Part shown: one piece after another, positions 1-57,341 of the stretch
Layout: each line of letters begins with the position of its first letter
How positions within the stretch are numbered: position 1 is the stretch's first letter
Assembly (NCBI GenBank): GCA_045602025.1
Contig: JAZSAT010000038.1
Location: 36,157-100,156 of the forward strand
DNA from: Eubacteriales bacterium
Lineage (GTDB): Bacteria; Bacillota; Clostridia; Oscillospirales; SIG627
DNA: 64,000 bases
Direction: 5' to 3'
Notes under the pieces: model-generated
Databases searched by the model: none
What the model was told of the DNA's origin: nothing
What the model saw: only the letters and a program-made list of their open reading frames with translations
Translations under genes and position numbers: made by a program

Positions 1-19
1 TTTTTTTATGCAGCTAAGA

Positions 20-4589: not shown

Positions 4590-4792
4590 TCCTCAGGAAT
4601 GGAAAATCTTTCCAATGCATCAAGTCCTTCGCTCCGAACGCTTACAAGCTCTTTTCCAAGCTCCTCCCGAACCCAGCTTAACTCCTCCGAAATATCCGGG
4701 AGAACTTCGATCAGTGCATCGCTTGCATCTTCAATTTTTTCTTTGGCAAAGAGGATTGCCTCCTCTTTGACCGTTATGTATTCACGATTCAT
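4577..4792 (-). CDS. Small acidic hypothetical protein (71 aa)
   Basis: This ORF lies directly downstream of a consensus promoter and is coupled to the sigma-like gene. I recognise no family. Confidence 0.4.
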   Translation of the reverse strand: MNREYITVKEEAILFAKEKIEDASDALIEVLPDISEELSWVREELGKELVSVRSEGLDALERFSIPEECAV

Positions 4793-4832
4793 TCTTTACT
4801 CCTTTTCGTAATTTCTCCCATCGATCATCTGG

Positions 4833-4861
4833 ATTATATCACGATTTTTCGTAATTGTCAA
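4833..4861 (-). promoter_or_regulatory. Consensus sigma-A promoter (TTGACA-17-TATAAT)
   Basis: The minus strand reads TTGACA (4861-4856), then a 17-nt spacer, then TATAAT (4838-4833). It sits about 40 nt upstream of the 4792 start. Confidence 0.65.
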
Positions 4862-4865
4862 TACA

Positions 4866-4889
4866 AAATACGAACTTTCGTTCGTATTT
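4866..4889. promoter_or_regulatory. Perfect 10-bp-arm palindrome (operator or second terminator)
   Basis: The sequence aaatacgaac/tttc/gttcgtattt lies 4 nt upstream of the -35 box on the minus strand. Confidence 0.4.
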
Positions 4890-4894
4890 TTAGG

Positions 4895-4927: not shown

Positions 4928-5911
4928 TTATTTTCTGTTCTGTCTGTAAAGCTCCCAAATGACCTTCAGGCTCTTAACAGCGCTTTCCAAGGGAACGGGA
5001 GATTCTTTTCCCTCTTCCAAAGCCTTGTAAAATTCTTCAATTAGGATGCTGTGGCCCTTACCCCAAACTTCCTTGCCGCGTCGCACACCCTTGGTGCCCT
5101 CGAAAACGATCTGGCCGTCCACAGAAAGACGGTCGCCGGAAAGGCGGAGATTTTTCTTCTCGCAGGCAATATCCACTTCCACTCTTGCGGATTTAAAGTA
5201 ACAGTTGGTTGCAAAGAAGATGCCCACCTTATCATCGGGATACTTCATAATGATGTGAGCGGTATCCTCCGTATCGTTATGGGGTCCTGTGGTATGGGTT
5301 GCGATGGCACCGGTTATGGATTCGGGTTCACCGAGAAAATACAAAAGAAGATCCAAGGAATGGATAGACTGATTGATCAGAACGCTCCCGCCTTCAGTAG
5401 CGATCTTTCCTCTCCAGGGGCTTTCGGTGTAATATTCACCGCCTCTTTTCCAGGTCACAATGGCTCTGCCGCCCAAAACCTTACCTGCCTCACCGGAGGC
5501 GATCATTTCTTCCGCAACACCGACTGCAGAAAGAAAACGGTTCTGGAAGCTAATGCAAAGGATGGCAGAAGAATTCTTCTCCGCCTCGATCAGAGCGGGA
5601 AGCTCCTCAGGTGTCATACAAGCAGGCTTCTCCAAAAAGACATTGATGCCTTTTTCCAAGGCATAGATTGCCATAGGCGCGTGGAGAAAGTGAGGGGTAC
5701 AAATATGCACTGCATCAGGCTTTTCCTTTTCCAGCATCTCCTTGTAATCGGTATAGATCTTCAGATCAAGACCTTCTCTGTCTATGGCAGCTTTCGCTGC
5801 ATTCGGATCAATATCACAAACCGCAGAAAAATTCACATTCGGCATTTCTTTTAAAATACCAATATGATTTTCGCTGATGGCACCGCATCCGATCAAAACT
5901 GCTTTTTTCAT
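4928..5911 (-). CDS. Gfo/Idh/MocA family oxidoreductase (327 aa)
   Basis: The start MKKAVLIGCGAISENH (Rossmann GxGxxG) has the SD aagaggaag. The 15-codon upstream extension lacks an SD. Confidence 0.85.
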   Translation of the reverse strand: MKKAVLIGCGAISENHIGILKEMPNVNFSAVCDIDPNAAKAAIDREGLDLKIYTDYKEMLEKEKPDAVHICTPHFLHAPMAIYALEKGINVFLEKPACMTPEELPALIEAEKNSSAILCISFQNRFLSAVGVAEEMIASGEAGKVLGGRAIVTWKRGGEYYTESPWRGKIATEGGSVLINQSIHSLDLLLYFLGEPESITGAIATHTTGPHNDTEDTAHIIMKYPDDKVGIFFATNCYFKSARVEVDIACEKKNLRLSGDRLSVDGQIVFEGTKGVRRGKEVWGKGHSILIEEFYKALEEGKESPVPLESAVKSLKVIWELYRQNRK

Positions 5912-6001
5912 ATTGACTTCCTCTTTTTCTGTTAAAAAGGGCTGTCGCACAGGCACGACAGCCCAAACTTTACTTGATTATAAATTAAGTGCGGAAAAAA
6001 A

Positions 6002-7222
6002 TCAATAGGTTCCGTCCAAATCAACGGGGCCGTCATTTGCTTTTACTTCCTTGCGACGGCTGGTCTTTACTCTCTTCATCAATTCTTCATAGTAAAGCTC
6101 CTCATCAATGGGAAGGGTAATGGTTTCATCCTTCCAGGAGGAAAGGATCATCGCATTTGCAAGCTCTACGCCGTGGATACCTTCTTCTGCACGGGCATAG
6201 AGAGGCTCAATGCCAAGAACCGCATTTGCCACATTGGAAAGAATACCTGCATGCTGGGGATTGGGTGCATCCACTTCAATTTCAATGATCTCAAAGAGAG
6301 GCTTCTTCATACCGCTGCCCTTATCGTTTGCATTGTATTCTCTCTCGTCGATCTCGTTCTTGTAGAAGGTAAGGGTGTTGGTTCTCTTGCGAGCTTCACC
6401 GTTGCCGGAAAATACATTTTCATATACAAGTTTACCCATGGTACCGGTTACCTCAAAACGGTTGGTGCCGGGGGTATCACCCGTAGTGGTAACAAAAAGA
6501 CCGGTTGCGCCGTTCTCATACTCAAAATATGCGGTTACATCGTCTTCTACCTCAATATCGCGCCACTTGCCTGCATGGCAGAATGCACGAACTTTCTTCG
6601 GCACCATGCCAACGATCCACCAAAACAGGTCGATATTGTGGGGAGCCTGATTCAGAAGAACACCGCCGCCCTCGCCGGACCAGGTTGCGCGCCAGTCACC
6701 GGAATCATAGTAGGTCTGAGTGCGGTACCAGTCGGTAATGAGCCAGTTGGTACGCTTGATCTCGCCAAGCTCTCCGTTTTCTACCATTTCCTTCATCTTC
6801 TTGAAGTAGGGATTGGTACGCTGGTTGAACATAATACCGAAGAGCTGATCGGGATGCTTCTTTGCTTCCTCGATCATTTCTTTCACCTGCTTGGTATAAA
6901 CGCCTGCGGGCTTTTCTACTACGATGTGAAGACCTGCCTTCAGTGCCTTGATGGCAATTTTAGGGTGATCGTAGTGAGGAACACCGATGATTACAACATC
7001 GCATTCACCGGAATTGATCAATTCTTCATCGCTGTTAAAGTATTTTACATTATCAAGAAGAGGATTTCCTGCATATTTTTCCTTAACAACCTCAAGCTTT
7101 TTGGGGTTCAGATCCGCAACCGCGGTGAGAATACCGTTCTCGATCTTACCGTCCATAAAGTTCTTCATGTGGGTGTGGCCGATGTTACCGGCACCGATCA
7201 TACCAAATCTTACTTTGTCCAT
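6002..7222 (-). CDS. Gfo/Idh/MocA family oxidoreductase (406 aa)
   Basis: It begins MDKVRFGMIGAGNIGHTH and contains the EKP motif (VVEKPAG) typical of the family. Confidence 0.85.
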   Translation of the reverse strand: MDKVRFGMIGAGNIGHTHMKNFMDGKIENGILTAVADLNPKKLEVVKEKYAGNPLLDNVKYFNSDEELINSGECDVVIIGVPHYDHPKIAIKALKAGLHIVVEKPAGVYTKQVKEMIEEAKKHPDQLFGIMFNQRTNPYFKKMKEMVENGELGEIKRTNWLITDWYRTQTYYDSGDWRATWSGEGGGVLLNQAPHNIDLFWWIVGMVPKKVRAFCHAGKWRDIEVEDDVTAYFEYENGATGLFVTTTGDTPGTNRFEVTGTMGKLVYENVFSGNGEARKRTNTLTFYKNEIDEREYNANDKGSGMKKPLFEIIEIEVDAPNPQHAGILSNVANAVLGIEPLYARAEEGIHGVELANAMILSSWKDETITLPIDEELYYEELMKRVKTSRRKEVKANDGPVDLDGTY

Positions 7223-8091
7223 GCCATATCCTCGCTTTCTTTAAATCCGTTTTTCTCAAGAACCTCTTTCAGGCTCTTTACTGCAAAGTCAAAGGATTCA
7301 TTTTTATCCTTGAATGCAAACTTGGTCTTAAATTCGCTCTTGTCAAATTCGCTGTATCCTTGGAACTTAAACAGGTGAGGCTCCATCGTAAGGAAGGAAT
7401 CTCCCTTGAAAATGTCATTGTGAAGGCAAATCGCTTCACCGATCAAACCGTCACCGTAGCCCGCGGGGACGATTTCTCCCTCATTTGTGCAATCTTTAAT
7501 ATGGAGATAATCAATATAAGGCATTACAAGCTTCGTTGTCAGTGCCTGATCTACACCTGCCTTGCGGTAGTTGGAGGGGTCGAAAATACCGCCGATCTCG
7601 GGAACATTTTCGTGAATGTCAAGGACCTCTTCCATCTTTTCGCCGTAAATGAGCGCTTCATTCTCATGCATCAATTGAATGCCCTGCGTTTCAGCATATG
7701 CGCAAAGCTTGTGGAGTCTTTCCAAAACCTCTTCGCGGTAATCTCTGGGATTTTCTCCTTCGGGAATGAAGTAGGAGAACATACGGATCCTCTTTGCCTC
7801 TAAAATGTGACAGATCTCACACAGACGGCGAAGAGATTCCAAAGAATAATCGAAAAATTTGGTGATATCCGTTTTGCCCAAACGGCTACCGATCGCAGAA
7901 ATGCCGATGCCGTTTGCATCCAGCTTTGCTTTTACCTCGCGTGTGGTGGCATTGGACTGTGCATCGATAGGACCGGTCTCAAGGCCGCGAAGCTCGATAA
8001 AGCGAATACGGTTTCTCAAAAGGGCTGCGATCTGGGTATCCAGTTCCTTTCCTGCTTCATCTGCAAATGCAGAAAGATAATACTTTGCCAT
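7210..8091 (-). CDS. Sugar phosphate isomerase/epimerase (xylose-isomerase-like TIM barrel, 293 aa)
   Basis: TIM-barrel family features include HENE (LMHENEALIYG) and HIKD (YLHIKD). It overlaps the downstream Gfo gene by 13 nt. Confidence 0.8.
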   Translation of the reverse strand: MAKYYLSAFADEAGKELDTQIAALLRNRIRFIELRGLETGPIDAQSNATTREVKAKLDANGIGISAIGSRLGKTDITKFFDYSLESLRRLCEICHILEAKRIRMFSYFIPEGENPRDYREEVLERLHKLCAYAETQGIQLMHENEALIYGEKMEEVLDIHENVPEIGGIFDPSNYRKAGVDQALTTKLVMPYIDYLHIKDCTNEGEIVPAGYGDGLIGEAICLHNDIFKGDSFLTMEPHLFKFQGYSEFDKSEFKTKFAFKDKNESFDFAVKSLKEVLEKNGFKESEDMAWTK

Positions 8092-40107: not shown

Positions 40108-40262
40108 TCACGCACAAGAGCGGAAAAACAGGGGTGCTACGGCTGAGATGCAGATTGCTGCAAACCCTTTAACCTGAGATGGATAATACCGGCGTAGGGA
40201 GTTTTGAAAGAGATGCAGATTCGCGTTCGCACGGGACTTCCGTCCTGTGCGAATTTTTTATA
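40108..40262 (+). promoter_or_regulatory. TPP (THI-box) riboswitch with terminator expression platform
   Basis: Conserved aptamer elements are GGGGTGC, CTGAGA, ACCCTTTAACCTGAGATGGATAATACC and GGCGTAGGGA. They are followed by the hairpin ttcgcacgggac/ttcc/gtcctgtgcgaa plus T6 (40226-40259), then the SD taaggag. Confidence 0.85.
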
Positions 40263-40274
40263 AGGAGTCTTACA

Positions 40275-40931
40275 ATGAGAAAAGACAAAACAAAAAAACT
40301 GGTTACCTCGGCGATGCTGATCGCCCTGGGAAGCGCCATTTCCCTGGTGTCGGAATGGATTCCCTTTTTAAATCTTCCCTTCGGTGGCACCATTACACTG
40401 GCAAGCCTTCTTCCCCTTGTTCTGATCTCCTATCTTTACGGTGTAAAATGGGGACTTGGCTCTGCCTTCGTCTATTCTCTCATTCAGATGGCAATCGGGT
40501 TTAAAACCGTATCCGCCCTTTTCATTCCTACCTCCGATTCCTATATGGGAAGCGTTCTGGTCGCCTTTCTCATTCTCCTTTTAGACTATGTTTTCGCCTA
40601 TACTTCGGTAGGTTTTGCAGGGGTATTCCGAAACAGACTTTCCAAAAAATGGGCAGTGTGCTTCGGCTCCATCTTAGGCCTTTTCCTCTGCTACTTTTTC
40701 CACGTGCTCTCCGGTGCCATCTTCTACGGCGCCTGGGCAGAGTGGTTCTTTGTGGAAAGTGCTGCAAAGGACCTTGCCATTTCTTCCTGGGTCATGAAGA
40801 CCTTCTCCGGGGCAGGCCTTGCCGCCGTATACTCCATTGTGTATAACGGCCTTTATATGCTGCCGGAAATTGTCATTACCGCAGTAGCCGGCTTTGCCGT
40901 CACAAAAATTCCTTCTCTTAAGAAAGACTGA
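40275..40931 (+). CDS. thiT: ECF-type thiamine transporter S component ThiT (218 aa)
   Basis: It is a 6-TM protein directly behind a TPP riboswitch. The N-terminus is KKLVTSAMLIALGSAISLV. Confidence 0.8.
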   Translation: MRKDKTKKLVTSAMLIALGSAISLVSEWIPFLNLPFGGTITLASLLPLVLISYLYGVKWGLGSAFVYSLIQMAIGFKTVSALFIPTSDSYMGSVLVAFLILLLDYVFAYTSVGFAGVFRNRLSKKWAVCFGSILGLFLCYFFHVLSGAIFYGAWAEWFFVESAAKDLAISSWVMKTFSGAGLAAVYSIVYNGLYMLPEIVITAVAGFAVTKIPSLKKD

Positions 40932-40933
40932 TT

Positions 40934-41539
40934 ATGAAAACATGCCATGTGGTAGGGGCAGGAGACTTTGCTCCGCATCTTTTAAAAATCGAAAAAGGCG
41001 ATCTTGTGATTGCCGCCGATGCAGGGTTTGACCATTTAAAGCGCGCCGGAATCTCAGCCGATCTTTACATTGGTGACGGTGACTCCTTGGGCTTTGTTCC
41101 CGAAGAAGTCGATACCGTGGTTCTCCCCACTGTCAAAGACGATACCGATATTCACGCTGCGGTCAAAGCAGGCCTTAAAAGAGGCTTTACCCATTTTCTT
41201 ATCTACGGTGCTTTGGGCGGGAAACGATTTTCCCATTCCCTTGCCAACCTTCAGGTTCTCTTTTTCCTAAAAAAAGAAGGTGCCACGGGAAGCCTTGTAG
41301 ATGAAAATTATTCGGTTTTTCTTTTAAGCGAAGGCTCCTATACCTTTGATTTTGAAAAAGGATATTTTTCCCTTTTCGATTTCGAAGGAAAGGCTACCGT
41401 TTCCGTAAAAGGGGCAAAATACCCTTTGGAAAAAGCGACCCTTCCCAATCATACCACACTTGGCATTAGCAACGAAGGAGAAAAAAGCACCTCCATTACC
41501 GTACACGAAGGAACCATCTTTTTGGTCAGAGAGCCTTAA
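40934..41539 (+). CDS. thiN: Thiamine diphosphokinase (201 aa)
   Basis: The TPK catalytic block is VIAADAGFDHL...DLYIGDGDSL...DDTD. The C-terminal part is a thiamine-binding-like domain. Confidence 0.8.
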   Translation: MKTCHVVGAGDFAPHLLKIEKGDLVIAADAGFDHLKRAGISADLYIGDGDSLGFVPEEVDTVVLPTVKDDTDIHAAVKAGLKRGFTHFLIYGALGGKRFSHSLANLQVLFFLKKEGATGSLVDENYSVFLLSEGSYTFDFEKGYFSLFDFEGKATVSVKGAKYPLEKATLPNHTTLGISNEGEKSTSITVHEGTIFLVREP

Positions 41540-47931: not shown

Positions 47932-50900
47932 TTAGAGTTCTACCTTGCCGCCAAGCTCAGCTTCTGTGCCGGCTTCGGGAGGATTCACGATCGAAACATC
48001 TCTGTTCAGGTAGTTATCAACTGCCTGAATGTAAATGAGGACATGCTTTGCAAGGCTGTTGTCAGGCTCCTTATTGATAATGCTCTGAGCCACCCAATCT
48101 ACCTGATCGGAAAGGGTAAGACACTTCTTACCGTTCTGATCAAAAATCTCAAAGTCCATCTTGTTCTGCATTTTAGATACGCTGAAGAAAATATCCACCG
48201 TAAATTCATATCTATCGCCCACCAAAACAGGCTCGGATACATCGCATACAGAGGTAACATCCTCTCCGTCTACCAGGATCTTCAAGCCATTTACACTCTC
48301 TGCGCTTGCCGCGGTACCGTAGAGACGGATACCGAGCGCATCATTCATCAGAAGGTTCTTGCCGGTAAAGGTAAGAAGTGCACCCTCTTCCGCTGCGCTG
48401 CCGCTTGCTCTGCTCGTCACAGCAGTATGATGAAGGTCGTGCTCTGCAAAACCGGGATTCAGTACGACTCTGCCAAGATCCGCAATGGAGTAGAAAAGCT
48501 GCTTGTCTCTGAATTCTGTGCAGCTTGCCGCGCCAAGCTCCGCAAGCTTAACAATGGTATTGTATTTTGCGCTGTTGGCATCATAGATTGTTTCACCCAG
48601 GATCGCAAATTCTGTCATAAAGTCGGAAAGTCCGATTCCGCCAAAGGAAAGAACATAATATTCTCCTTCTGCAGTCAAATCGGCAAAGCCGCCTTCTGCC
48701 AGCTTCTGTCCGCCCAGAAGAACCGTATAGGTAAAGTCTTCTGTGATATCCGCCTTGTTAAAGTAGAATTTCACACCTACTCTGGTATCCAAAAGAAGCT
48801 TTGCGGATACAGGAGCTACAAAGGTAGCCTCCTTGTAAGTACCTACAACCGTATTTGCATCTACCGCACCCTGACCGCAAACATAATCAGCAACCGAAAG
48901 CGTAAGCTTTCCGGTAGAATCGGTCAGGTAGGTACGGTCCTGCCAGTATTCTACCTGTGATACGGTTACATTGCCTTCCTCTGCGCCTGTAATGGTAACA
49001 GAGGCATCCTTGCCCACCTGAATGATACCGCTGCCGGTAAGAGATTCAACGGTGGTAGTACCGTAGAAGGTAATGGGCTTTGTGCCCAGGTTAAATGTAA
49101 GGGTTGCAGTGGTAACACCGCTGGTTTTCGCGCCCTTTGTAACGCTGCCGCGGAAAGCACCGCCGTTGATCGTGGTATTTACCGTGGGAATGGTAGCACT
49201 TTCACCTCCGCCGTAGAAGGTAGTGATATCACCGCCGGAAATGGTATTGGTTACCGTACCGGTTACCGTTCCGCCCTTGGAGCCGCCGTAGAAGGTACCG
49301 ATCGTACCGCCGTAAATTTCATTTTCAATGCTGCCGCTGAAGGTATTCACGCGGCTGCCGCCATAGAAGGTACCAACCTTACCGCCAAGGAAAATGTTCT
49401 TTACAAGTGCCGCAGAGCCGCCGTTGGCCGCCGCATATATGCCTTCCATGTCTGCGCCGTCTCTGATATAAGTTACAATTTTCGTTGTTACCTTACCGCT
49501 GTTACATCCGCCGCTGGGGTATCCTGTCATTTTTGCGGCAAAATGGTTTTCGATCTCATTGACTGTTGCGGAGTTACTGCCACAGTAGAAGCCTGTAGTA
49601 AACTTGGTCTGAGCCCCGCAAATGGTATTCTTAATGATCTTGTCGGTAGCAGTGGAAGCAGAAGCTCCGGAATAGCGAATAAAGCTTGCACCGTCGATCT
49701 CATTGATAATACGGTAAGTAAGGGAATCGTTTTCAGCAAAGGTAGCCAGGCTGTTACCGCCGTAGAACCAGTCGCCCTGGAAGGAAGCACCCTTGATCTT
49801 GTTGGTGATAGAGCCCTTAACGGTATATCCGCTCTTTTCGGTACCACCGTAGGTATTGTAAGAAGCAAGCTTCGCGCCTGTATCATCGTAGGTAATACCG
49901 CCGTAAGTACCGCCGATAAAGCTGTTTTCAATATTGCCGATAATGTTTCTGGTATAGTTACCGCAGAAAAGATTACCGAAAATAGTACAGTTCTTAAAGG
50001 TATTCTTAATGTTACCGTTCACCTGATTCTCGTAAGCGCCCATATAATGGCTGGCAGTAGCAGGCATGGTTACATTTTCAAAATAGTTCTCAATGGAAGC
50101 GGGAGAACCGCATCTTACACCGATAAAGGTAGACCCTGTAGCATTGGCAAAGCTTACATTTCTCAAAATATTGGTTACCTTGCCGCTGCCGCCACCGCCG
50201 TGGATCGCATCGCCCAGGGAGACACCCTGAATATTAAAGGTAACATCGCCCGTACAGCTACCGGGATTTGAACCGGAGCCGAAAAGACCTCTCAGATACT
50301 TCTGAATGGTAATTTCGCCGTCGGTAGGAGCAACTGTCAGGTTCATATCACCTTGAAGGTGACCGTCCCAAAGCATGTTAACACCGCGAAGAGAGCCACC
50401 GGTTACAATAACATTCATATCACCGTAGTACTGCTCGCCCTGACCCTCGGTATCGCCGCTCTGAGAGGTGCTGTGATCACCGTAGATCATATTCACGGTA
50501 CCCTTCTTCAAATGAACGGTAGCATCGGAGGGAGCTCCGCCCAGCTTTGTACTGATGTTCTGAAGGATCGTACCTTCACCGTCAATGGTCAAAGTAGGCT
50601 TAACCTGATAGGGTCTGATATCTGCCGCACCGGACACACCGGAAGCATAATACTTGATCGCCTTTGCCTCAGCATCGGAAAGAGCAGTGGTATTCTGGTT
50701 GAAAAGATAACCGGAAGCCGCTGCGCGGATTACGTTAGAATCCACAAATTCCACACCGTCACCGATGGTAACACCGGTCTTAACGGTTTCCCCTTCCTTC
50801 AGGGCAGGCCAACCAACAAATACAGCATCGGTACAGTTGTCTGCAAACAGGTATCCCTTATGCTCAAAATCAGCACCGTATGCACCGATGGGAGAGTTAC

Positions 50901-52356
50901 CTACTTCATACCAAAGCATTCTGGCATTGGGATTATTTTCCTTGAAGAAATCATATACATCGCCGATACCAAATTTAGCAACCCCATTTTCCTTATAAAC
51001 GCAGTTATCGATAACCTTGGTCTTATTTACCTCGTGATCTCCGGGATAAAAACCAAAGTCATCCAGGTGGTTGGTGGTTTCAAATACTGCTACGCTATCC
51101 CATGCCTTTGCGGGAAGAATGTCGGAAAGCAGTCTTATCGTATTCATCTCGTTGGATTTTACCGCACCCTGGCCGTTTGCATCGTACCAAACCTGCATGG
51201 AGTAGTCGCCGTTATCATTATAAATGTTGGAAGCAATGGTAGAGAATGCAATACTGGAGGTGTAGGCGTGGTGCACCTTCATATTCACACCTGCAGCACG
51301 GGCAACGGAAGCAAGCTCATCAATGCAGTAGTAAGCATTGGAAGAGCCGATAATCAAAAAGTTATAAATATTGTCAGCACCGATATCATCGGGCAAAACC
51401 TCTGTGCAGTAGCCTTCACCGTATTCCGCCGCAACCGCTGCATGAGCGATCTCCTGAAGCTCTTCAAAGGTCATATCGCTGTTTTTCAGGCTATAGGAAG
51501 GACGGAAGGTGTTGCCGATACAGCTTTTTCTCGTCAGTGTTTCAAACAGTACACAGGCATACAGATACTGACCGCCGCCGATATCACCCTCGTGACGCCA
51601 GTCACCGTAGTCAAGACCGTTTTTCATGGAATTTGCAAAAAGGAGATGACCCAGTTCTTCATCGCCGAATGCCGCGCTTTCCGCAGCCAGCATAGCAGCG
51701 TCGTTTACAGGGATCAGATCCACATCGTAAGTATCTCTTACATGCTCGGAAAGATGGGTGGAAAGAGCCGCCATCTCTTCAAATTCATCTCTGGTGGGAA
51801 CCATCAGCTGTGTGGTTCCGGAAAAGTTCAGATCGCAGTCTACAAACTTAATATTACCGGAGCCTGCATAAAACTGTGTATTCTGAGCCGCAAGAGGCAC
51901 CGTCATATTCACAAAGGTATAGTCGTTGGCACAGGCATACCAGCCGCCTGCTGCATCCAGATAAATAGATGAATCACGCTCGTAATTCTTATCAATACCG
52001 CGGATGGTAATGGGAAGCTTGGTACCGTCCTCTCTCCAGATAGTCGTAGCAGAAAAGAGAAGTCCCTGCTTACCCGTGGTAGTGGAATCGATACCCTGAG
52101 GTCCTGCCGATACCAGATCGCCCTGGAAACGGATCTCAAGGACATCGTCCTTGCCCCAGGAAACCTTTGCTGCCTTCTGCATTGCTGCAACAAAGTTAGA
52201 AAAATGCAGCTTTCCTTCTTCTTCGTAATCCGCTACGGTATAGATCTCCGTAGGGGTCTGCACTTGCGCCTTTGCACCGATGAAAAGCGCACCTGTCACA
52301 CAGGTGACCAGCATCATGATCGCAAGAACAAGTGATATCAGCTTGCGTTTTGTCAT
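47932..52356 (-). CDS. Giant secreted glycine-rich solenoid (beta-helix-like) protein with nested SGNH/DUF4886-like module, paralog 1 (1474 aa)
   Basis: The start MTKRKLISLVLAIMMLV (signal peptide) has the SD ggagg. It contains long imperfect repeats of the form N.I.GG....FYGG. It aligns end to end with 52914..57341. Confidence 0.8.
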   Translation of the reverse strand: MTKRKLISLVLAIMMLVTCVTGALFIGAKAQVQTPTEIYTVADYEEEGKLHFSNFVAAMQKAAKVSWGKDDVLEIRFQGDLVSAGPQGIDSTTTGKQGLLFSATTIWREDGTKLPITIRGIDKNYERDSSIYLDAAGGWYACANDYTFVNMTVPLAAQNTQFYAGSGNIKFVDCDLNFSGTTQLMVPTRDEFEEMAALSTHLSEHVRDTYDVDLIPVNDAAMLAAESAAFGDEELGHLLFANSMKNGLDYGDWRHEGDIGGGQYLYACVLFETLTRKSCIGNTFRPSYSLKNSDMTFEELQEIAHAAVAAEYGEGYCTEVLPDDIGADNIYNFLIIGSSNAYYCIDELASVARAAGVNMKVHHAYTSSIAFSTIASNIYNDNGDYSMQVWYDANGQGAVKSNEMNTIRLLSDILPAKAWDSVAVFETTNHLDDFGFYPGDHEVNKTKVIDNCVYKENGVAKFGIGDVYDFFKENNPNARMLWYEVGNSPIGAYGADFEHKGYLFADNCTDAVFVGWPALKEGETVKTGVTIGDGVEFVDSNVIRAAASGYLFNQNTTALSDAEAKAIKYYASGVSGAADIRPYQVKPTLTIDGEGTILQNISTKLGGAPSDATVHLKKGTVNMIYGDHSTSQSGDTEGQGEQYYGDMNVIVTGGSLRGVNMLWDGHLQGDMNLTVAPTDGEITIQKYLRGLFGSGSNPGSCTGDVTFNIQGVSLGDAIHGGGGSGKVTNILRNVSFANATGSTFIGVRCGSPASIENYFENVTMPATASHYMGAYENQVNGNIKNTFKNCTIFGNLFCGNYTRNIIGNIENSFIGGTYGGITYDDTGAKLASYNTYGGTEKSGYTVKGSITNKIKGASFQGDWFYGGNSLATFAENDSLTYRIINEIDGASFIRYSGASASTATDKIIKNTICGAQTKFTTGFYCGSNSATVNEIENHFAAKMTGYPSGGCNSGKVTTKIVTYIRDGADMEGIYAAANGGSAALVKNIFLGGKVGTFYGGSRVNTFSGSIENEIYGGTIGTFYGGSKGGTVTGTVTNTISGGDITTFYGGGESATIPTVNTTINGGAFRGSVTKGAKTSGVTTATLTFNLGTKPITFYGTTTVESLTGSGIIQVGKDASVTITGAEEGNVTVSQVEYWQDRTYLTDSTGKLTLSVADYVCGQGAVDANTVVGTYKEATFVAPVSAKLLLDTRVGVKFYFNKADITEDFTYTVLLGGQKLAEGGFADLTAEGEYYVLSFGGIGLSDFMTEFAILGETIYDANSAKYNTIVKLAELGAASCTEFRDKQLFYSIADLGRVVLNPGFAEHDLHHTAVTSRASGSAAEEGALLTFTGKNLLMNDALGIRLYGTAASAESVNGLKILVDGEDVTSVCDVSEPVLVGDRYEFTVDIFFSVSKMQNKMDFEIFDQNGKKCLTLSDQVDWVAQSIINKEPDNSLAKHVLIYIQAVDNYLNRDVSIVNPPEAGTEAELGGKVEL

Positions 52357-52409
52357 TGTTTTTCCTCCAAAAAACTTTTTCAGGAATATTTCATTCCTTC
52401 GCACCTTAC

Positions 52410-52438
52410 ATTCTACCTTAAATATGGGCTTCTTTCAA
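52410..52438 (-). promoter_or_regulatory. Putative promoter TTGAAA-17-TAGAAT for giant gene 1
   Basis: On the minus strand the -35 is at 52438-52433 and the -10 at 52415-52410. Confidence 0.4.
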
Positions 52439-52584
52439 CCTCTTTTTCTTTCCAATCGAAAAAAACAGCAAAAAAGACTATTAATTTCGAAAAAATTTGT
52501 GTATTTTAACGAAAAAAGAAACCAAACCGAGAGAAACACTTCGTGAAGAAGTTGTCTCTCTCGGTTTTTATTCCAACAAAAAAA

Positions 52585-52617
52585 TGACACTTTGCACAAA
52601 GATTATGAAAGTGTCAT
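52585..52617 (-). terminator. Hairpin + T-run inside the insertion
   Basis: The hairpin is atgacacttt/14-nt loop/aaagtgtcat, followed on the minus strand by T7. Confidence 0.5.
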
Positions 52618-52685
52618 AGTGGGTTACATACTTTGAGAAAGGTAATACTTGCCGAAAATGAAGAATATCTTTCTCAGCAGGTAAA

Positions 52686-52862
52686 GTGATTTTGCAAACT
52701 AAAAGTTTGCAGTGATATTTTTGCCTTGCGGCAAAAGTGATATGAAAACCTTGCGGTTTTCGTGATATTATATTCGCCCTAAAAACTGTCCGCAGGACAA
52801 TACCACTAGCATCAGCTAATATCACTGCGAAGCAATATCACTCGCCGTCAGGCGAATATAAC
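52686..52862. repeat. Composite palindromic array: 4x GTGAT(A/T)T+hairpin, then 4x hairpin+ATA(T/C)(C/A)AC
   Basis: GTGATAT-type heptamers lie at 52686, 52712, 52737 and 52762, each followed by a 7-8 bp hairpin. Their reverse complements lie at 52800, 52819, 52835 and 52856, each preceded by a short hairpin. An inverted repeat tatattcgcc/ggcgaatata is present at 52769-52778 and 52851-52860. Confidence 0.65.
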
Positions 52863-52913
52863 TGAGGCACCTTCCTTACGGAGGGTGCCTCGAAGTTTGG
52901 TTTCTTTTTTTGT

Positions 52914-55900
52914 TTAGAGTTCAACCTTTCCGCCGATCTCAGCTTCTCCGCCGGGTGTGGAAGGAGCAATGGGATGTATGGTCGGGTTGATGTAATCGTT
53001 TGTCTTCTGAATATAGATCAAAATCTGCTTTGCCAATGCATTGTCAGGCTCCTTGTTGATGATCATCTGTGCAACCCAATCCACCTGATCGGAAAGCGTA
53101 AGGCATCTCTTACCGTTTTCATCCAGAATCTGAATATCGAACCGGTTCTGCATTTTGGATACGCTGAAGAAAACATCCACCGTAAATTCATATCCGTCGG
53201 TACCTAAAACTGCCTCGGAAATATCGCACATTGCCGTTACATCTTTTCCGTCAAAAATCACCTTCATGCCGTCCACAGCTTCCGCACTCTGCGCTCTTGA
53301 GTAAAGACGGAGACCGATGGCATCGCTCATCAGAAGGTTTTTACCGGTAAAGCTGAGAAGTGCACCGTCCTCGCCGATCTGACCGGAGGAAGCGGAAACA
53401 ATATCACGGTAAGCCAGATTGTGCTGTACCGATGCAGGATCCTTTGCGCATCTGCCAAGATCCGCAATGGCATAGAACATTTGCTTTTCTCTGTATTTTT
53501 CGCAGTTTGCCGCACCAAGCTCCGCAAGCTCTACAACCGTATTGTGGTTTTCTGCACTTTCGTCATAGATCGCTTCGCTTTCAATGGAAAACTCGGTCAT
53601 AAAGTCGGAAAGTCCGATGCCGCCGAAGGAAAGGACAAGATATTCCCCTTCCTCAGTCAGGTCTTTGTATTCACCGGAGGCCAGCTCTTTTTCGCCCATG
53701 ACCACGGTGTAAGAGAAGCTTTCGGAAACATCTGATTTGTTAAAGTAGAATTTGATTCCTACTCTGGTATCCAAAACAAGTCTTGCCGCTACGGGAGTAG
53801 CCAGCTTTTCGGAAGGAGCAACGCCCACTACCGTATGACCGGAAACAGATGCCGTACCGGGTGCATCATCGATAACAGAAAGAGTGATCTTTTCGGTAGA
53901 ATCGGTAAAATAAGTCTGATCCTGCCAGTATTCTACCTGCTCCACCGCAACGTTTCCTGCCGTGCCGCCGCTTACGGTAACAGATGCGTTTTTACCCACC
54001 TGAATCACACCGCTTCCGGTAAGATTTTCAAGGGTAAAGGTGCCGTAGAATCTGATGGGAGCCTGTCCCAGCCGGAATTCTAAGGTCGCGGTGGTAACTG
54101 CACCGGTATTGCCTCCTTTTGTGATACTGTTGCGGAAAGCACCGCCGGAGATGGTGGTGTTCACTGCGGATGCACTGCCTGCATTACCGCCGCCGTAGAA
54201 ATTGGTGAAATCGCCGCCCTGAATCAGGTTTGTAACGGTACCTGAAACGGCAGAGCTTGCGGTATTACCGCCGCCGTAGAAATCACCGATCACACCGCCG
54301 GTCACCGTGTTTGTAACGCTTGCAACCTCTGCTGCTCGGCTACCGCCGTAGAAGGCTTCAACCTTACCGCCGGAAATAAAGTTTCGGACGAGTGTAGCAC
54401 CGTAGTTATTTCCCGCGGCGTAAATGTTGATCAGGTCCGCACCGTCCTCAATATAGTTGGTAACATTTTCTACGGTCGCATTGTTACCGCCGCCTACAAC
54501 CATACCGCCGGTAATTTTACCTTTGAAGTAATTGGTGATAGAGGTAACATTCGATGCAGAGGAAGCACAGTAAGTATATTTAAACTCATTCTCTCCGGCA
54601 AAGGTATTCTTTACCGTATCTACCGCTTTGTTTTCACAAGATCCGATAAATCTGGTATTGGAAGCCGTTACATTCGAGATCTCGTTTTCAATACGGAAAT
54701 CATATGCATCGCCTTCCGCAAAGGAGGCATAAGAGCTACCGCAGTAGAGATAAGTTGCGCTAAAGGAGGTACCGTCAATGGTGTTTTTGATCTGTCCGCC
54801 GATGGTATCCGTTCTGGTAGAGGAGGATGCAGTGCCGCCGTAATAAGTACCGATCACACTGCCGCCGGTTATGGTGTTGGTAACAGAGCCTGCAATGGAA
54901 GACAGGCGGTTTCCGCCGTAAAAATTCTTTTCAAAGGTAGAATTTTTGATGGTATTGGTAATGCTTCCGCGCACATAGCCGGATTTGTTTCCACCGTAAA
55001 CATTTCCTGCAAAACTGCAGTTTTCAATGGTATTTACTACATTGGTACAAGCATCGCCGTTGGTTCCGAGATAAAAATCCGCAGTCCCGCCAAAGCTTGT
55101 ATTTCTCAGTGTATTGGTCACGGTCACGGGCTGGTTGTTCATCGAACCGATGAAAATGCCGCCGATGGTACAATCTTCAATGGTATTATATACGTTTGCC
55201 TGATTGCTGCCGCCAAGCTTTACCTCGCCCACAATATTGGCGCCTTTGATATAGGTGGTGGAATCACCCGTGTATCTGCCCACCGTATTGTTACCCATAT
55301 TACCGCTGACGTTGCCTAAAATATTGATGTTTTCTTTGCCTGTTTTCTCAATATGAAGATTTACGTTTCCTACCACAGTGGAATCCCAGGTGGTATTCAC
55401 CGATCCTGCCACCGTGCCGCCGTTTACGATGATACCAAGATCACCGTAGAAATACTCTTCCTTGCCGTCAAGACCGTTGTCTGTGGACTGCACGGTATAG
55501 TTGTCACAGCCGATTCTCTGTACGCCGCCTTTTTTCAAATGAACGGTAGCGGCACAGGGAGAAGAACCGACCTTTGCCGCAACGTTATATACCTTGGCAT
55601 TTTCACCGTCAATATAGAAGGTGACCTCAGTATCTACGGGACGAATGTCGGGAATATCCTCCAAGCCGCTTTCCATAAATTTGACTTCTTTTGCGGAAGC
55701 AGCATCCAATTTAGAATAGGCCTCGTCGGGGTGATAGCCGGAAGCCGCCACCAAAATGGCTGCTCTGGACTCGGCGGTGGAAGTATCTTCATACACCACG
55801 TTATTACCGAAGGTGATGCTCGTTTTTACTTTTTCACCGGCCTTCAATTCAGGCCAACCTGCAAATACCGCATCGGTACAGGTATCTGCATAAATATATC

Positions 55901-57341
55901 CGTTCAATTCTCCGGTGCTGGTGCCGAATGCGCCGATGGGCGCTACGGGCGGCTGATACCAGAAAAGACCCGCGCCTTCCGGCAAATTCTCTCTCAGGAA
56001 GGCATAGGTTCCTTCCGCACCTGCCATATCCGGCATGATCTTATTGATGTTTGCAGGGTAATCGGATTCTTTCAAGCCATAATCGTCAAACTGGGAAGCG
56101 CCGGTATAAACAAAGCACGCGTCCCAGGTCTTCAAAGGCATAATGTTTTGAAGGGACTGTTTTGCGGTGGTAGTCAGTTTTGCGCCGCTTCCGGTATCTT
56201 TCCATACGCGCAGCTGATATTCTTCTGCGGCGGTATTTATTTTCTCCCACTGCGGATTGATTTTAAGGCTTGAGATATATGGGTTGTAAACGTTCATATC
56301 AAGCCCTGCGTGGTAGCCGAGGGAAGCAAGTTCATCTGCAAAATAGTAACAAGTAGAAGAACCGGGGAACAAAATGTTAAATTCCCCATCGTTTCCAATG
56401 TCGGTAAAGGACGCATTAAAATAGTCCTCACCGTAATAATTTACGACAGCGCGGTGTGCAAGTTCGCGAAGCGCCTTGAAGGACATATTGGGATTTACAA
56501 GTCCATAGCTGGGTTCCCAATCAATATTAAGGCAACTCATGTGCGTCACCACTTCAAAAACGATACAAGCGTTCAGGTACTGACCGCCGCCTACATCACC
56601 GTCATGGGTCCAGTCACCGTACAGCGTACCCTTGGAAGCCATCGCGCGAAGAACGTGACCGTATTCTGTGCTGTGGAAGGGTGATGAAGGGTCATTTACA
56701 ACTTCAGCCCAAGCATCTCCCGCGGGAATCATACCCACGTTGTAAAGGCTGCAAATTCGATCCGAAACCTCTTTAGAAAGGCGAATGAGTTGCTTTTGAG
56801 AAGAAGCATCCGGTACCATAATACGAGAAGAAGTGGTTGCCAGATGACATTCCTCAAATTTTACGTTGCCCGAACCTGCATAAAAAGTGACGCCCCAAGT
56901 GCCGATGGGCATGGTAAGGTTTACGAAGGTGTAGTCGTTGGCACAAGCATACCAGCCGCCTGCGTGGTCAAGGTCGATCAGTGCATCGCGGCTTTTTTTG
57001 GTATCAATACCACGGATGGTAATAGGAAGTTTCGTTCCGTCTTCTCTCCAAATGGTCTTTTGTGCAAAAAGAAGACCGTCCTGCGCCCCTGCGCCCGACT
57101 GTGTTCCGGAAAAGCGGATTTCCAGAGCATCGTCCTTTTTCCACTGACCGCTTTCTTTGGCAGCGTTTGCAAGGGCGGTGGTAATATCGATAAAATGCTC
57201 TTTTCCTTCTTCGGTGTAATCACAAGCAGTATAAATCACCGTAGCCTCCTTTGCTCCCGCTCCTAAAATAAGGACTCCCAAAACACAAGAAGCCAAAAGG
57301 AGAACGGAAAGCAGCAAAGATAATACTTTTATTTTTTTCAT
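52914..57341 (-). CDS. Giant secreted glycine-rich solenoid protein with nested SGNH/DUF4886-like module, paralog 2 (1475 aa)
   Basis: The signal peptide has a lipobox-like LLASC. The SD is ggagg. The architecture matches paralog 1 and the C-terminal GGKVEL is identical. Confidence 0.8.
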   Translation of the reverse strand: MKKIKVLSLLLSVLLLASCVLGVLILGAGAKEATVIYTACDYTEEGKEHFIDITTALANAAKESGQWKKDDALEIRFSGTQSGAGAQDGLLFAQKTIWREDGTKLPITIRGIDTKKSRDALIDLDHAGGWYACANDYTFVNLTMPIGTWGVTFYAGSGNVKFEECHLATTSSRIMVPDASSQKQLIRLSKEVSDRICSLYNVGMIPAGDAWAEVVNDPSSPFHSTEYGHVLRAMASKGTLYGDWTHDGDVGGGQYLNACIVFEVVTHMSCLNIDWEPSYGLVNPNMSFKALRELAHRAVVNYYGEDYFNASFTDIGNDGEFNILFPGSSTCYYFADELASLGYHAGLDMNVYNPYISSLKINPQWEKINTAAEEYQLRVWKDTGSGAKLTTTAKQSLQNIMPLKTWDACFVYTGASQFDDYGLKESDYPANINKIMPDMAGAEGTYAFLRENLPEGAGLFWYQPPVAPIGAFGTSTGELNGYIYADTCTDAVFAGWPELKAGEKVKTSITFGNNVVYEDTSTAESRAAILVAASGYHPDEAYSKLDAASAKEVKFMESGLEDIPDIRPVDTEVTFYIDGENAKVYNVAAKVGSSPCAATVHLKKGGVQRIGCDNYTVQSTDNGLDGKEEYFYGDLGIIVNGGTVAGSVNTTWDSTVVGNVNLHIEKTGKENINILGNVSGNMGNNTVGRYTGDSTTYIKGANIVGEVKLGGSNQANVYNTIEDCTIGGIFIGSMNNQPVTVTNTLRNTSFGGTADFYLGTNGDACTNVVNTIENCSFAGNVYGGNKSGYVRGSITNTIKNSTFEKNFYGGNRLSSIAGSVTNTITGGSVIGTYYGGTASSSTRTDTIGGQIKNTIDGTSFSATYLYCGSSYASFAEGDAYDFRIENEISNVTASNTRFIGSCENKAVDTVKNTFAGENEFKYTYCASSASNVTSITNYFKGKITGGMVVGGGNNATVENVTNYIEDGADLINIYAAGNNYGATLVRNFISGGKVEAFYGGSRAAEVASVTNTVTGGVIGDFYGGGNTASSAVSGTVTNLIQGGDFTNFYGGGNAGSASAVNTTISGGAFRNSITKGGNTGAVTTATLEFRLGQAPIRFYGTFTLENLTGSGVIQVGKNASVTVSGGTAGNVAVEQVEYWQDQTYFTDSTEKITLSVIDDAPGTASVSGHTVVGVAPSEKLATPVAARLVLDTRVGIKFYFNKSDVSESFSYTVVMGEKELASGEYKDLTEEGEYLVLSFGGIGLSDFMTEFSIESEAIYDESAENHNTVVELAELGAANCEKYREKQMFYAIADLGRCAKDPASVQHNLAYRDIVSASSGQIGEDGALLSFTGKNLLMSDAIGLRLYSRAQSAEAVDGMKVIFDGKDVTAMCDISEAVLGTDGYEFTVDVFFSVSKMQNRFDIQILDENGKRCLTLSDQVDWVAQMIINKEPDNALAKQILIYIQKTNDYINPTIHPIAPSTPGGEAEIGGKVEL

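Follow-up and report, generated by a model that had tools for sequence, protein, structure and literature searches.

A two-armed Gut-1 hairpin array forms the centre of a 363-bp insertion with a MOBV1-type oriT in a clostridial terminator loop

We analysed a stretch of 64,000 nucleotides (nt) of contig JAZSAT010000038.1 from a Eubacteriales bacterium of the Oscillospirales (assembly GCA_045602025.1), referred to below as the window. Between two genes on its − strand (47932-52404 and 52914-57341) lies an array of GTGATAT-type heptamers, each accompanied by a hairpin, and this array occupies the centre of a gene-less, non-coding insertion of 363 base pairs (bp) at 52529-52891, termed here a type-A element. 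The insertion sits within the intrinsic terminator of the gene at 52914-57341, and beside the array it carries a block that by its sequence is an origin of transfer (oriT) of the MOBV type. The features of the locus are the following.

52511..52528, − strand: downstream half of the host terminator interrupted by the insertion, with G of the loop (52528), GTTTGGTTTC as stem arm (52527-52518) and a T-run
52529..52891, − strand: the insertion, GAGGCACC...GTTTCTCTC, defined by empty versus filled site, with a boundary ambiguous by 1-3 nt
52529..52562, − strand: terminal hairpin 2, GAGAGAGAC-AACTTCTTCACGAAGT-GTTTCTCTC, an inverted version of the hairpin-1 type
52584..52635, + strand: MOBV-type oriT (by sequence), inverted repeat ATGACACTTT/AAAGTGTCAT at 52584-52593 and 52608-52617, then ATAGTGGG/TTAC
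52634..52676: leader between oriT and array, conserved in type-A copies, with hairpin TGAGAAAGGTA/TATCTTTCTCA and alternative pairing TGCCGAAAA/TTTCTCGGCA
52686..52768, − strand: long-hairpin arm, heptamers ATATCAC (three times) and AAATCAC between three 7-8-bp hairpins; loops GCAA, GCAA and TTT on the − strand
52762..52784: dyad centre GTGATATTATATTCGCCCTAAAAAC, holding the 52768-52778 arm of the 11-bp inverted repeat
52768-52778 and 52851-52861: 11-bp inverted repeat, TTATATTCGCC and GGCGAATATAA
52785..52862, + strand: short-hairpin arm, four hairpins followed in turn by ATACCAC, ATATCAC, ATATCAC and ATATAAC; loops GCA, ATCA, GAA and GTCA on the + strand
52826-52834: mini-hairpin TGC-GAA-GCA of the short arm
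52864..52891, − strand: terminal hairpin 1, GAGGCACC-CTCCGTAAGGAAG-GTGCCTC, with a GTAA loop and a loop region conserved in type-A copies
52894-52892, − strand: terminator loop bases TTC, next to the upstream half
52895..52911, − strand: upstream half of the interrupted intrinsic terminator (host gene 52914-57341), comprising an A-run and the stem arm GAAACCAAAC

The array had been noticed earlier by a reader working from the letters alone (hereafter the sequence-only reading), and a re-check confirmed all its heptamer positions. On the + strand the left arm contains GTGATTT at 52686 and GTGATAT at 52712, 52737 and 52762, with the period of 25-26 nt that had been described; the right arm contains the reverse-complement forms ATACCAC (52800), ATATCAC (52819 and 52835) and ATATAAC (52856), with a period of 16-21 nt, giving an inverted 4+4 arrangement of eight heptamers. 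All seven spacers are indeed hairpins, with perfect Watson-Crick stems of 8, 7, 7, 5, 4, 3 and 5 bp, each equalled by at most 1.6% of the spacer's own shuffles; the one preceding ATACCAC is 15 nt long. One unit of the array reads TGCGAAGCA as DNA. Exact GTGATWT occurred at six sites in these 177 nt, where the density in the rest of the window predicts 0.075 (Poisson P = 2.3e-10), and at 33 sites in the whole window against 16.5 expected. The inverted repeat said to tie the halves together exists, but it is 11 bp long rather than 10, and the dyad centre contains overlapping −10-like hexamers, TATTAT on the + strand and TATAAT on the − strand. As had been stated, this is not an array of clustered regularly interspaced short palindromic repeats (CRISPR): its 7-nt "repeats" are inverted between the halves and its spacers are palindromic, and CRISPR models gave only a chance-level CRISPR-DR57 match in the window (18.4 bits against a threshold of 39).

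The right arm aligned end to end with the covariance model of the Rfam family Gut-1 (RF01706; full-length match 1-77, 52864..52795 on the − strand, 48.9 bits, E = 3.8e-8), a score just below the family's gathering score of 50 bits, so that the array is not listed at that threshold although the homology is clear. A weak match to the left arm was found on the + strand (52684-52753, 20.5 bits). In the homologous arrays of loci L198, L144, L122, L243, L138 and L124 the short arm scored 54-61 bits with this model and the long arm, on the opposite strand, 45-52 bits. Gut-1 was described in 2010 as a candidate three-hairpin small RNA (sRNA) from human-gut metagenome reads only, with no function (Weinberg et al. 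2010, PMC2864571), and searches of the literature returned nothing later on it. The flanks of the published seed already show a second inverted arm and the same centre, GGCGAAUAUAAUAUCAC, and over TTATATTCGCCTGACGGCGAGTGATATTG several members of the seed are almost identical to the window. At least three covarying hairpins separated by GUGA(A/U)AU heptamers, the hallmark of the family, are present here, and the window array comprises two mirror-image copies of the Gut-1 motif. A GUGAAAU subfamily has a mirrored AUUUCAC arm, and one Gut-1 subgroup has a single arm only.

A family survey was made by scanning a single genome of each species for the centre together with one heptamer; the counts given below are copies among the matches listed. 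The further copies whose search had been proposed were found as at least 120 array stretches, all in metagenome-assembled genomes (MAGs) of Oscillospirales-type gut bacteria (Acutalibacteraceae, Oscillospiraceae, Ruminococcus, Faecousia and unclassified Clostridia, human and ruminant), and the Gut-1 model revealed extra arrays without the exact centre near those of relatives. The modal architecture was again 4+4 heptamers (66 and 69 of the 95 fully covered copies), the arms differing in heptamer spacing (16-22 nt against 22-25 nt). RNAalifold on 71 aligned copies found compensatory double changes in 23 of 36 predicted pairs, which bears out the proposal that what is conserved is the heptamer plus some hairpin and not a hairpin sequence. 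The hairpins had also been called private to their units; their sequences do differ between units, but a limited, shuffled repertoire recurs between copies, so they are not fully private. Long-arm heptamers were near-invariant (ATATCAC, n = 341), and those of the short arm were divided between GTG and GTT (153 and 170 of 346) without compensation. Relative to published Gut-1, the new features are the mirrored pair of arms, the host taxa, the association with terminators and tRNA genes, the terminator-loop insert and the fusion to a MOBV oriT, all undescribed in the searchable literature.

Several other candidates were set aside. Arrays occurred in just one viral contig and one "unverified phage" record, and a phage origin was rejected; the broad pattern GTGAWAT x3 was dropped as a search query for being too noisy in viral contigs. 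No inverted variants were seen among the 71 aligned copies, and an invertible segment was discarded; a type III toxin-antitoxin RNA, an integron attC and a Xer/dif site were discarded on anatomy. Pairing of the heptamer with GGUGAUAU as an anti-ribosome-binding-site was rejected, the 33 GTGATWT sites of the window not lying in ribosome-binding-site contexts.

Arrays also cluster within a few kilobases (kb), with pairs 1-4 kb apart in L158 (near 4670-4890 and 7400-7630), L217, L144, L232, L134, L211 and L132; in L158 both stand ahead of genes for small membrane proteins or lipoproteins without a Pfam match. In L193, L213, L151 and L170 the short arm is collapsed to one or two hairpins (in L170 the closing repeat is its own hairpin), which is consistent with recombination between repeated units.

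At the orthologous intergenic site of L244, a related MAG whose flanking protein is 69% identical, the terminator is intact (AGAAACCAAAC-TTCG-GTTTGGTTTCTTTTTTT), whereas in the window its two halves, a 16-nt perfect inverted repeat, are split: the junction reads ...AAAC-TTC, then GAGGCACC...363 nt...CTCTC, then G-GTTTGG.... From this empty and this filled site it follows that the element is a discrete insertion into the loop of a two-way intrinsic terminator. The target duplication is 0 bp (TTC/GAGGC...CTCTC/G against empty TTCG, ambiguous up to 3 nt). The sequence-only reading had considered, among other options, that the array could be the recombination end of a small mobile element; a discrete insertion with an empty site agrees with the second half of this idea, which of the three options came nearest, but the array is the centre of the element and not its end. 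The array itself had been correctly recognised, with the conserved unit being larger, from about 52529 to 52891.

Both ends of the insertion carry a hairpin. Hairpin 1 forms with the host T-run an outward-facing terminator-like site (52863-52892, + strand), and hairpin 2, whose loop region ACTTCGTAAAGAAGT is conserved and inverted relative to hairpin 1, is likewise terminator-like with the host T-run when read outwards. The two loop regions are inverted copies of each other (about 10 of 13 nt) and both ends start with GAG; the stems differ. On the − strand the type-A order is hairpin 1, short arm, centre, long arm, a conserved block of about 110 nt and hairpin 2, a layout found in 38 of 127 copies. 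Nearly all of the 24 type-A copies examined lie in a different split A-run/T-run terminator each, the 10-20 nt outside the hairpins being mutual reverse complements that differ from copy to copy, and L232 contains two copies in one 8-kb stretch. Hairpin-type matches away from arrays numbered four, and the one examined, in L189, is the far end of a cargo-carrying type-A copy (4937-7272). Its 2.6 kb of cargo, an EcoRI-type adenine methyltransferase and a GmrSD_N/HNH nuclease, lie between the oriT block and a hairpin-2 remnant, and here too the halves of a split terminator lie on either side. With miniature inverted-repeat transposable elements (MITEs) the type-A element thus shares precisely bounded presence/absence polymorphism and multiple copies in unrelated flanks; a target-site duplication is missing, and among the loci surveyed we found neither an autonomous relative encoding a transposase nor a conserved protein neighbour of the arrays.

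The conserved block contains, between hairpin 2 and the leader, a site that reads ATGACACTTT-loop-AAAGTGTCAT-AGTGGG/TTAC on the + strand. A 29-nt box within it (52607-52635) matches base for base (29/29) a sequence in L242 that precedes a Mob_Pre (PF01076) gene by 66 nt, inside a Tn4451-like module on an IncHI2 plasmid, and the same 29 nt occur on a Kurthia plasmid. Among the matches listed for its 25-nt core, a Mob_Pre start lay 67-78 nt away on the expected strand in 48 of 83 metagenome loci, and a Gut-1 array took the place of Mob_Pre in 5 of the 83; as the oriT-to-array spacing is like the oriT-to-mob spacing, the array sits where the relaxase gene would be. The oriT of pMV158 consists of a minimal inverted repeat (IR1), 8 nt and a G/T nick, AAGtaTAGTGTG/TTATAC (PMC5863519). 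The window site has the same succession of inverted repeat, about 8 nt and GpT, and since it follows this rule we predict a nick between 52623 and 52624 on the + strand. By sequence and position, the block is a MOBV1-type oriT. With that of pMV158, with RS_A of Tn4451-type mobilisable transposons and with "orphan oriT" hitch-hikers, it can be compared for its inverted repeat, the 8 nt, ATAGTG(T/G)G, and the G/T nick site on the strand leading into mob. The difference lies in a missing relaxase gene, with a Gut-1 array in that place; moreover the whole carrier is 363 bp in a terminator loop, not a plasmid or an integrase-bearing element. The 25-nt box is very common in gut metagenomes (at least 83 loci, L248-L330). 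It is also present in enterobacterial IncHI2 plasmids whose Tn4451-like module encodes a serine recombinase, TnpW, Mob_Pre and aac(6')-aph(2'') (L242, 3001-3047), and in Kurthia plasmids beside a catB-type gene (L241, 3001-3035).

Type-B copies (those with no recognisable oriT) have other surroundings. Among 73 testable ones, 31 lie about 45 nt after the 3' end of a tRNA, tightly clustered with the tRNA end about 120 nt from the array centre; all 31 are co-oriented, none opposed, and 13 different tRNA types are involved. Where the hairpin between tRNA and array has a T-run, it has an A-run as well in 51 of 54 cases. Co-orientation with upstream protein genes was 9 against 2 for type A and 16 against 7 for type B, and the − strand of the window, rich in G, is the leading strand.

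The polarity of the hairpin loops distinguishes the two arms. In the Rfam orientation, 239 of 342 short-arm hairpins have TNC or TNNC loops and none has GNA, and 171 of 294 long-arm hairpins have GNA or GNNA loops and one has TNC; the closing pair of GNA/GNNA loops is C..G. Because this polarity flips between the arms, the repeat unit runs outward from the centre, on opposite strands in the two arms, as 5'-ATATCAC-stem-C(GNA/GNNA)G-stem-3', and the arms are true mirror copies yet not equivalent. In 76 of 105 arrays the best-conserved hairpin, just 3 bp and a triloop, matches the DNA mini-hairpin GCGNAGC. As DNA such mini-hairpins are hyper-stable and nuclease-resistant, need C..G closure and become unstable with TTC loops, and they are present at the phage G4 origin, the RSF1010 ssiA priming site and N4 promoters (PMC13037366; PMC3201870). 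The array folded as single-stranded DNA (ssDNA) with z = −7.05.

The reading that we favour, and to which we would give an even chance, sees the insert as non-coding and mobilisable, with an array of hairpins and heptamers that works when single-stranded, ssDNA being its likeliest form. For the narrower point that the array works as ssDNA rather than RNA, which is argued from the sequence, the prospects are even or a shade below. The mini-hairpin loops, the 3-bp hairpin being the best conserved and a two-strand symmetry recalling ssiA/ssiB speak for it, as does a single-strand lifestyle to which the oriT, the loop insertion without duplication and the strand bias point. As a hitch-hiker without autonomy, the element would be mobilised in trans: once a resident Mob_Pre relaxase had nicked the + strand at 52623/52624, this strand would leave 5'-first, with the array following directly on the nick. 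Each spacer could then fold into a hairpin, capped by a C-GNA-G or C-GNNA-G loop of the "mini-hairpin DNA" type (e.g. GCGAAGC), leaving the 7-nt heptamers as exposed single-stranded linkers for a sequence-specific partner. With one arm per strand, the array may serve as a single-strand initiation or recognition module usable on whichever strand is exposed, in a role comparable to RSF1010 ssiA/ssiB or the G4 complementary-strand origin. The lack of target duplication, the insertion into a hairpin loop and the strand bias further suggest an ssDNA-based transposition supplied in trans.

A number of observations weigh against this reading. No relaxase is found within about 2 kb of the 82 of 127 copies that belong to type B, and a transfer-linked role is thus documented solely for the subset that includes the window. 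A wobble-pair strand test favoured the GNA polarity when parsed by hand (20 against 7), and RNAfold-based counts had no such preference; two loops of the window, ATCA and TTT, are outside the GNA/GNNA type. A promoter-like site and a two-way terminator frame the short arm like an ordinary + strand sRNA gene. No heptamer-binding protein, primase or transposase was identified among the loci surveyed, and the heptamer contains no known initiation trinucleotide of Firmicute DnaG.

That the short arm is such an sRNA gene, on the strand opposite to the one annotated by Rfam, is the closest alternative, which we hold to be somewhat unlikely. Its promoter would lie in the dyad centre, with a −35 in the first long-arm hairpin and an extended −10, TGaTATTAT, at 52763-52771; an RNA of about 125 nt would start near 52778, stop at hairpin 1 and a U-rich tail near 52905, and act as a sponge or scaffold for protein or RNA partners through four AUAU(C/A)AC linkers exposed between its capped hairpins. 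On this view the long arm would represent either an upstream mirror copy or a second, divergent RNA starting from the − strand TATAAT. A promoter-like ATGAAA-18-TATTAT with TG is present on the + strand (52742-52771), arrays show the central pattern TTGAAA/ATGAAA-16..18-TGaTATTAT, and of 74 distinct contexts 40 had a −35 match of at least 4/6, compared with 31 of 188 at control offsets. Moreover the hairpin beside the short arm is two-way in the 51 of 54 cases cited, where an upstream tRNA needs a T-run only. The short arm folds as RNA into four hairpins plus the terminator (z = −5.2; a fold prediction had been suggested at the outset), its loops are GNRA-like and covariation is family-wide. 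However, the AT-rich heptamer by itself accounts for the resemblance to a −10, which the GUGAAAU subfamily lacks at that place, at least one member has a one-way hairpin only, and the 25 TTGAAA cases share one hairpin type and are not independent. The 3-bp triloop hairpin is marginal as RNA (absent from the centroid fold) and hyper-stable as DNA (PMC13037366), and the 11-bp closing repeat would fall outside the RNA. Finally, the reverse promoter (TATAAT) has a −35 in only 1 of 102 cases, so that the equally conserved long arm is left unexplained. An sRNA on the − strand as in Rfam, expressed by read-through from an upstream gene or tRNA, is improbable. In it a 12-bp closing stem, GUUAUAUUCGCC/GGCGAAUAUAAU, would enclose three hairpins with GUGAUAU between them, and the hairpins of the long arm would come next; RNAalifold predicts this stem and the hairpins, the stem covaries between the GUGAUAU and GUGAAAU subfamilies, and the strand of the Rfam match and the co-orientation with upstream genes and tRNAs are as expected. 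The motif nevertheless comes directly after a strong terminator with no promoter before it, and the short-arm loops are UNC/UNNC in this orientation on stems of 3-5 bp. The annotated strand of Gut-1 is probably arbitrary, given that the model also matches the other arm on the opposite strand.

Explanations that leave the DNA double-stranded, or that pair the arms with each other, are also less likely. An iteron-like array bound as duplex, one of the options first proposed, would be a centromere, an operator or a set of att-arm-like sites, with a dimer or multimer on eight TCAC-type heptamers placed 4+4 round an AT-rich centre, comparable to the WATCACW heptads of omega protein, P1 parS box A (ATTTCAC) and lambda Int arm sites. 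The inverted symmetry, the strongly conserved heptamers and the promoter-like sequence that some copies abut agree with it, and TATCACT presumably fits WATCACW, as ATTTCAC of the sister subfamily presumably equals P1 box A. Yet the spacing varies over 16-25 bp, which gives no helical phasing, and duplex binding requires neither the compensatory changes in the hairpins nor their strand-specific loops. Nor was there a conserved protein gene next to the other copies, where the sequence-only reading had advised looking: the largest cluster of open reading frames (ORFs) comprised 9 of 128 elements. We regard duplex binding, too, as improbable. It had also been proposed that in a structured RNA the heptamers pair across the dyad. 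The match to Gut-1 lends substance to the structured RNA, but not to the pairing. A single strand of RNA or DNA would then form a ladder of four-way junctions, with left GUGAUAU on right AUAUCAC, and the minimum-free-energy fold of the + strand does pair them in this way. Against this, the GTT heptamers (170 against 153 GTG) are mismatched to an invariant ATATCAC partner, uncompensated, and the pairing is for this reason not supported; the outermost heptamer pairs with the dyad centre (the 11-12-bp repeat), topologically enclosing the short arm, and the one-armed Gut-1 subgroup has no second arm to pair with. This ladder is very improbable. The array is a real feature, and low-complexity coincidence, for which nothing speaks beyond the AT-richness of the heptamer, is refuted by the heptamer density, the at least 120 homologous copies and the covariation, its probability being negligible.

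The favoured element resembles MITEs, repetitive extragenic palindromes (REPs), bacterial interspersed mosaic elements (BIMEs), REP doublets forming hairpins (REPINs) and the palindrome elements derived from IS200/IS605 in being small, gene-less, hairpin-rich, multi-copy and extragenic at gene 3' ends, and in its presence/absence polymorphism, lack of target duplication and a strand bias as in ssDNA transposition. REPs have a conserved short GTAG beside each hairpin, with which the heptamer may be compared. Here, by contrast, the hairpins vary within one array, the heptamer is conserved across bacterial families and an oriT is carried; the terminal hairpins are mutually inverted and not co-oriented as in IS200/IS605. 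No RAYT, TnpA or other transposase partner was found for the element. RSF1010 carries its two single-strand initiation (ssi) signals, ssiA and ssiB, on opposite strands in one inverted repeat. Strand-specific GNA/GNNA-capped DNA hairpins with adjacent single-stranded bases are common to such signals (RSF1010 ssiA/ssiB, the G4 origin, plasmid single-strand origins; PMC13037366) and to the array, as seen in its loop polarity, C..G closure and GCGNAGC hairpins. The known signals differ in having one to three hairpins and no repeated heptamer, and a priming role of the array is proposed by analogy. The inc18 omega heptads and P1 parS box A probably agree in their heptamers and in direct plus inverted arrays near promoters. 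They differ in being contiguous or phased on duplex beside par or repressor genes; here variable hairpins intervene and no such genes are linked.

Since the array is the core of a gene-less mobile insert with a transfer origin in a terminator loop, these data suggest that the "RNA of unknown function" Gut-1 belongs to a hitch-hiking DNA element. A broader proposal, tentative and as a whole unlikely in our judgement, is that Gut-1 arrays represent a previously unrecognised kind of hitch-hiker DNA in gut Clostridia, one that has no genes and acts as folded single strands, the Rfam "sRNA" being a misassigned DNA element. Such hitch-hikers would insert without duplication in two-way terminator loops and beside tRNA genes, borrow a relaxase through a captured oriT and use the two-stranded heptamer/mini-hairpin array as a novel recognition or priming module for an ssDNA-binding enzyme. 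In any case Gut-1, an orphan since 2010, gains host taxa, a mirror anatomy and a habit of flanking terminators and tRNA 3' ends that differ from its published form, and a subset of it gains a mechanistic setting, a mobile insert with a predicted relaxase nick site, which makes a DNA-level function directly testable. If the favoured reading holds, conjugative hitch-hikers, of which more and more are being recognised, would include an oriT-bearing element as small as 363 bp. It would then also illustrate how a site on the chromosome might become a starting point for transfer of the chromosomal DNA around it, and would be a naturally occurring, multi-copy case of "mini-hairpin DNA" motifs. For RNA-motif pipelines it would be a caution that covarying hairpins can belong to single-stranded DNA biology.

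Beyond the type-A insert, no protein family stood consistently beside the arrays surveyed, and the conserved blocks after type-B arrays gave no plasmid matches that would mark them as other oriTs. In L124, L137, L158, L179, L181, L184, L188, L169 and others, a conserved cassette CTTGCACCTCCACCGCTTTTATGCTATAAT...AAGGCGGTGATnnATG directly follows the long arm, fused to unrelated ORFs; its resemblance to a promoter with a Shine-Dalgarno sequence, which CACCGC/GCGGTG could mask, points to a portable unit for expression or regulation. In L198, L217, L225, L180, L208 and L138 ("B1/B2" copies) a terminator-type hairpin, CGACAAGTTTC-GACA-GAAACTTGTCG, stands in direct orientation on both sides, with compensatory differences between its two copies, and encloses the array and a conserved block of 70-100 nt with a GGTTCGAA-like motif, which had no plasmid matches.

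The genes flanking the insert in the window (47932-52404 and 52914-57341) encode tandem paralogous secreted proteins of about 1480 amino acids (aa) with 47% identity. They have almost no Pfam signal apart from a marginal DUF4886 match, the N-terminal 352 aa of the first found just distant relatives in a database of 5.8 billion proteins, and both are absent from the other array loci. A sigma-70-like promoter for gene 47932-52404 (TTGAAA-17-TAGAAT, 52410-52438, − strand) lies just outside the insert, which therefore parts it from the terminator of the upstream gene with neither being disrupted. Elsewhere in the window, a thiamine pyrophosphate (TPP) riboswitch (RF00059, 63.5 bits) lies at 40120-40217 on the + strand, upstream of ORFs at 40179-41539, and is the only Rfam match above gathering score in the window.

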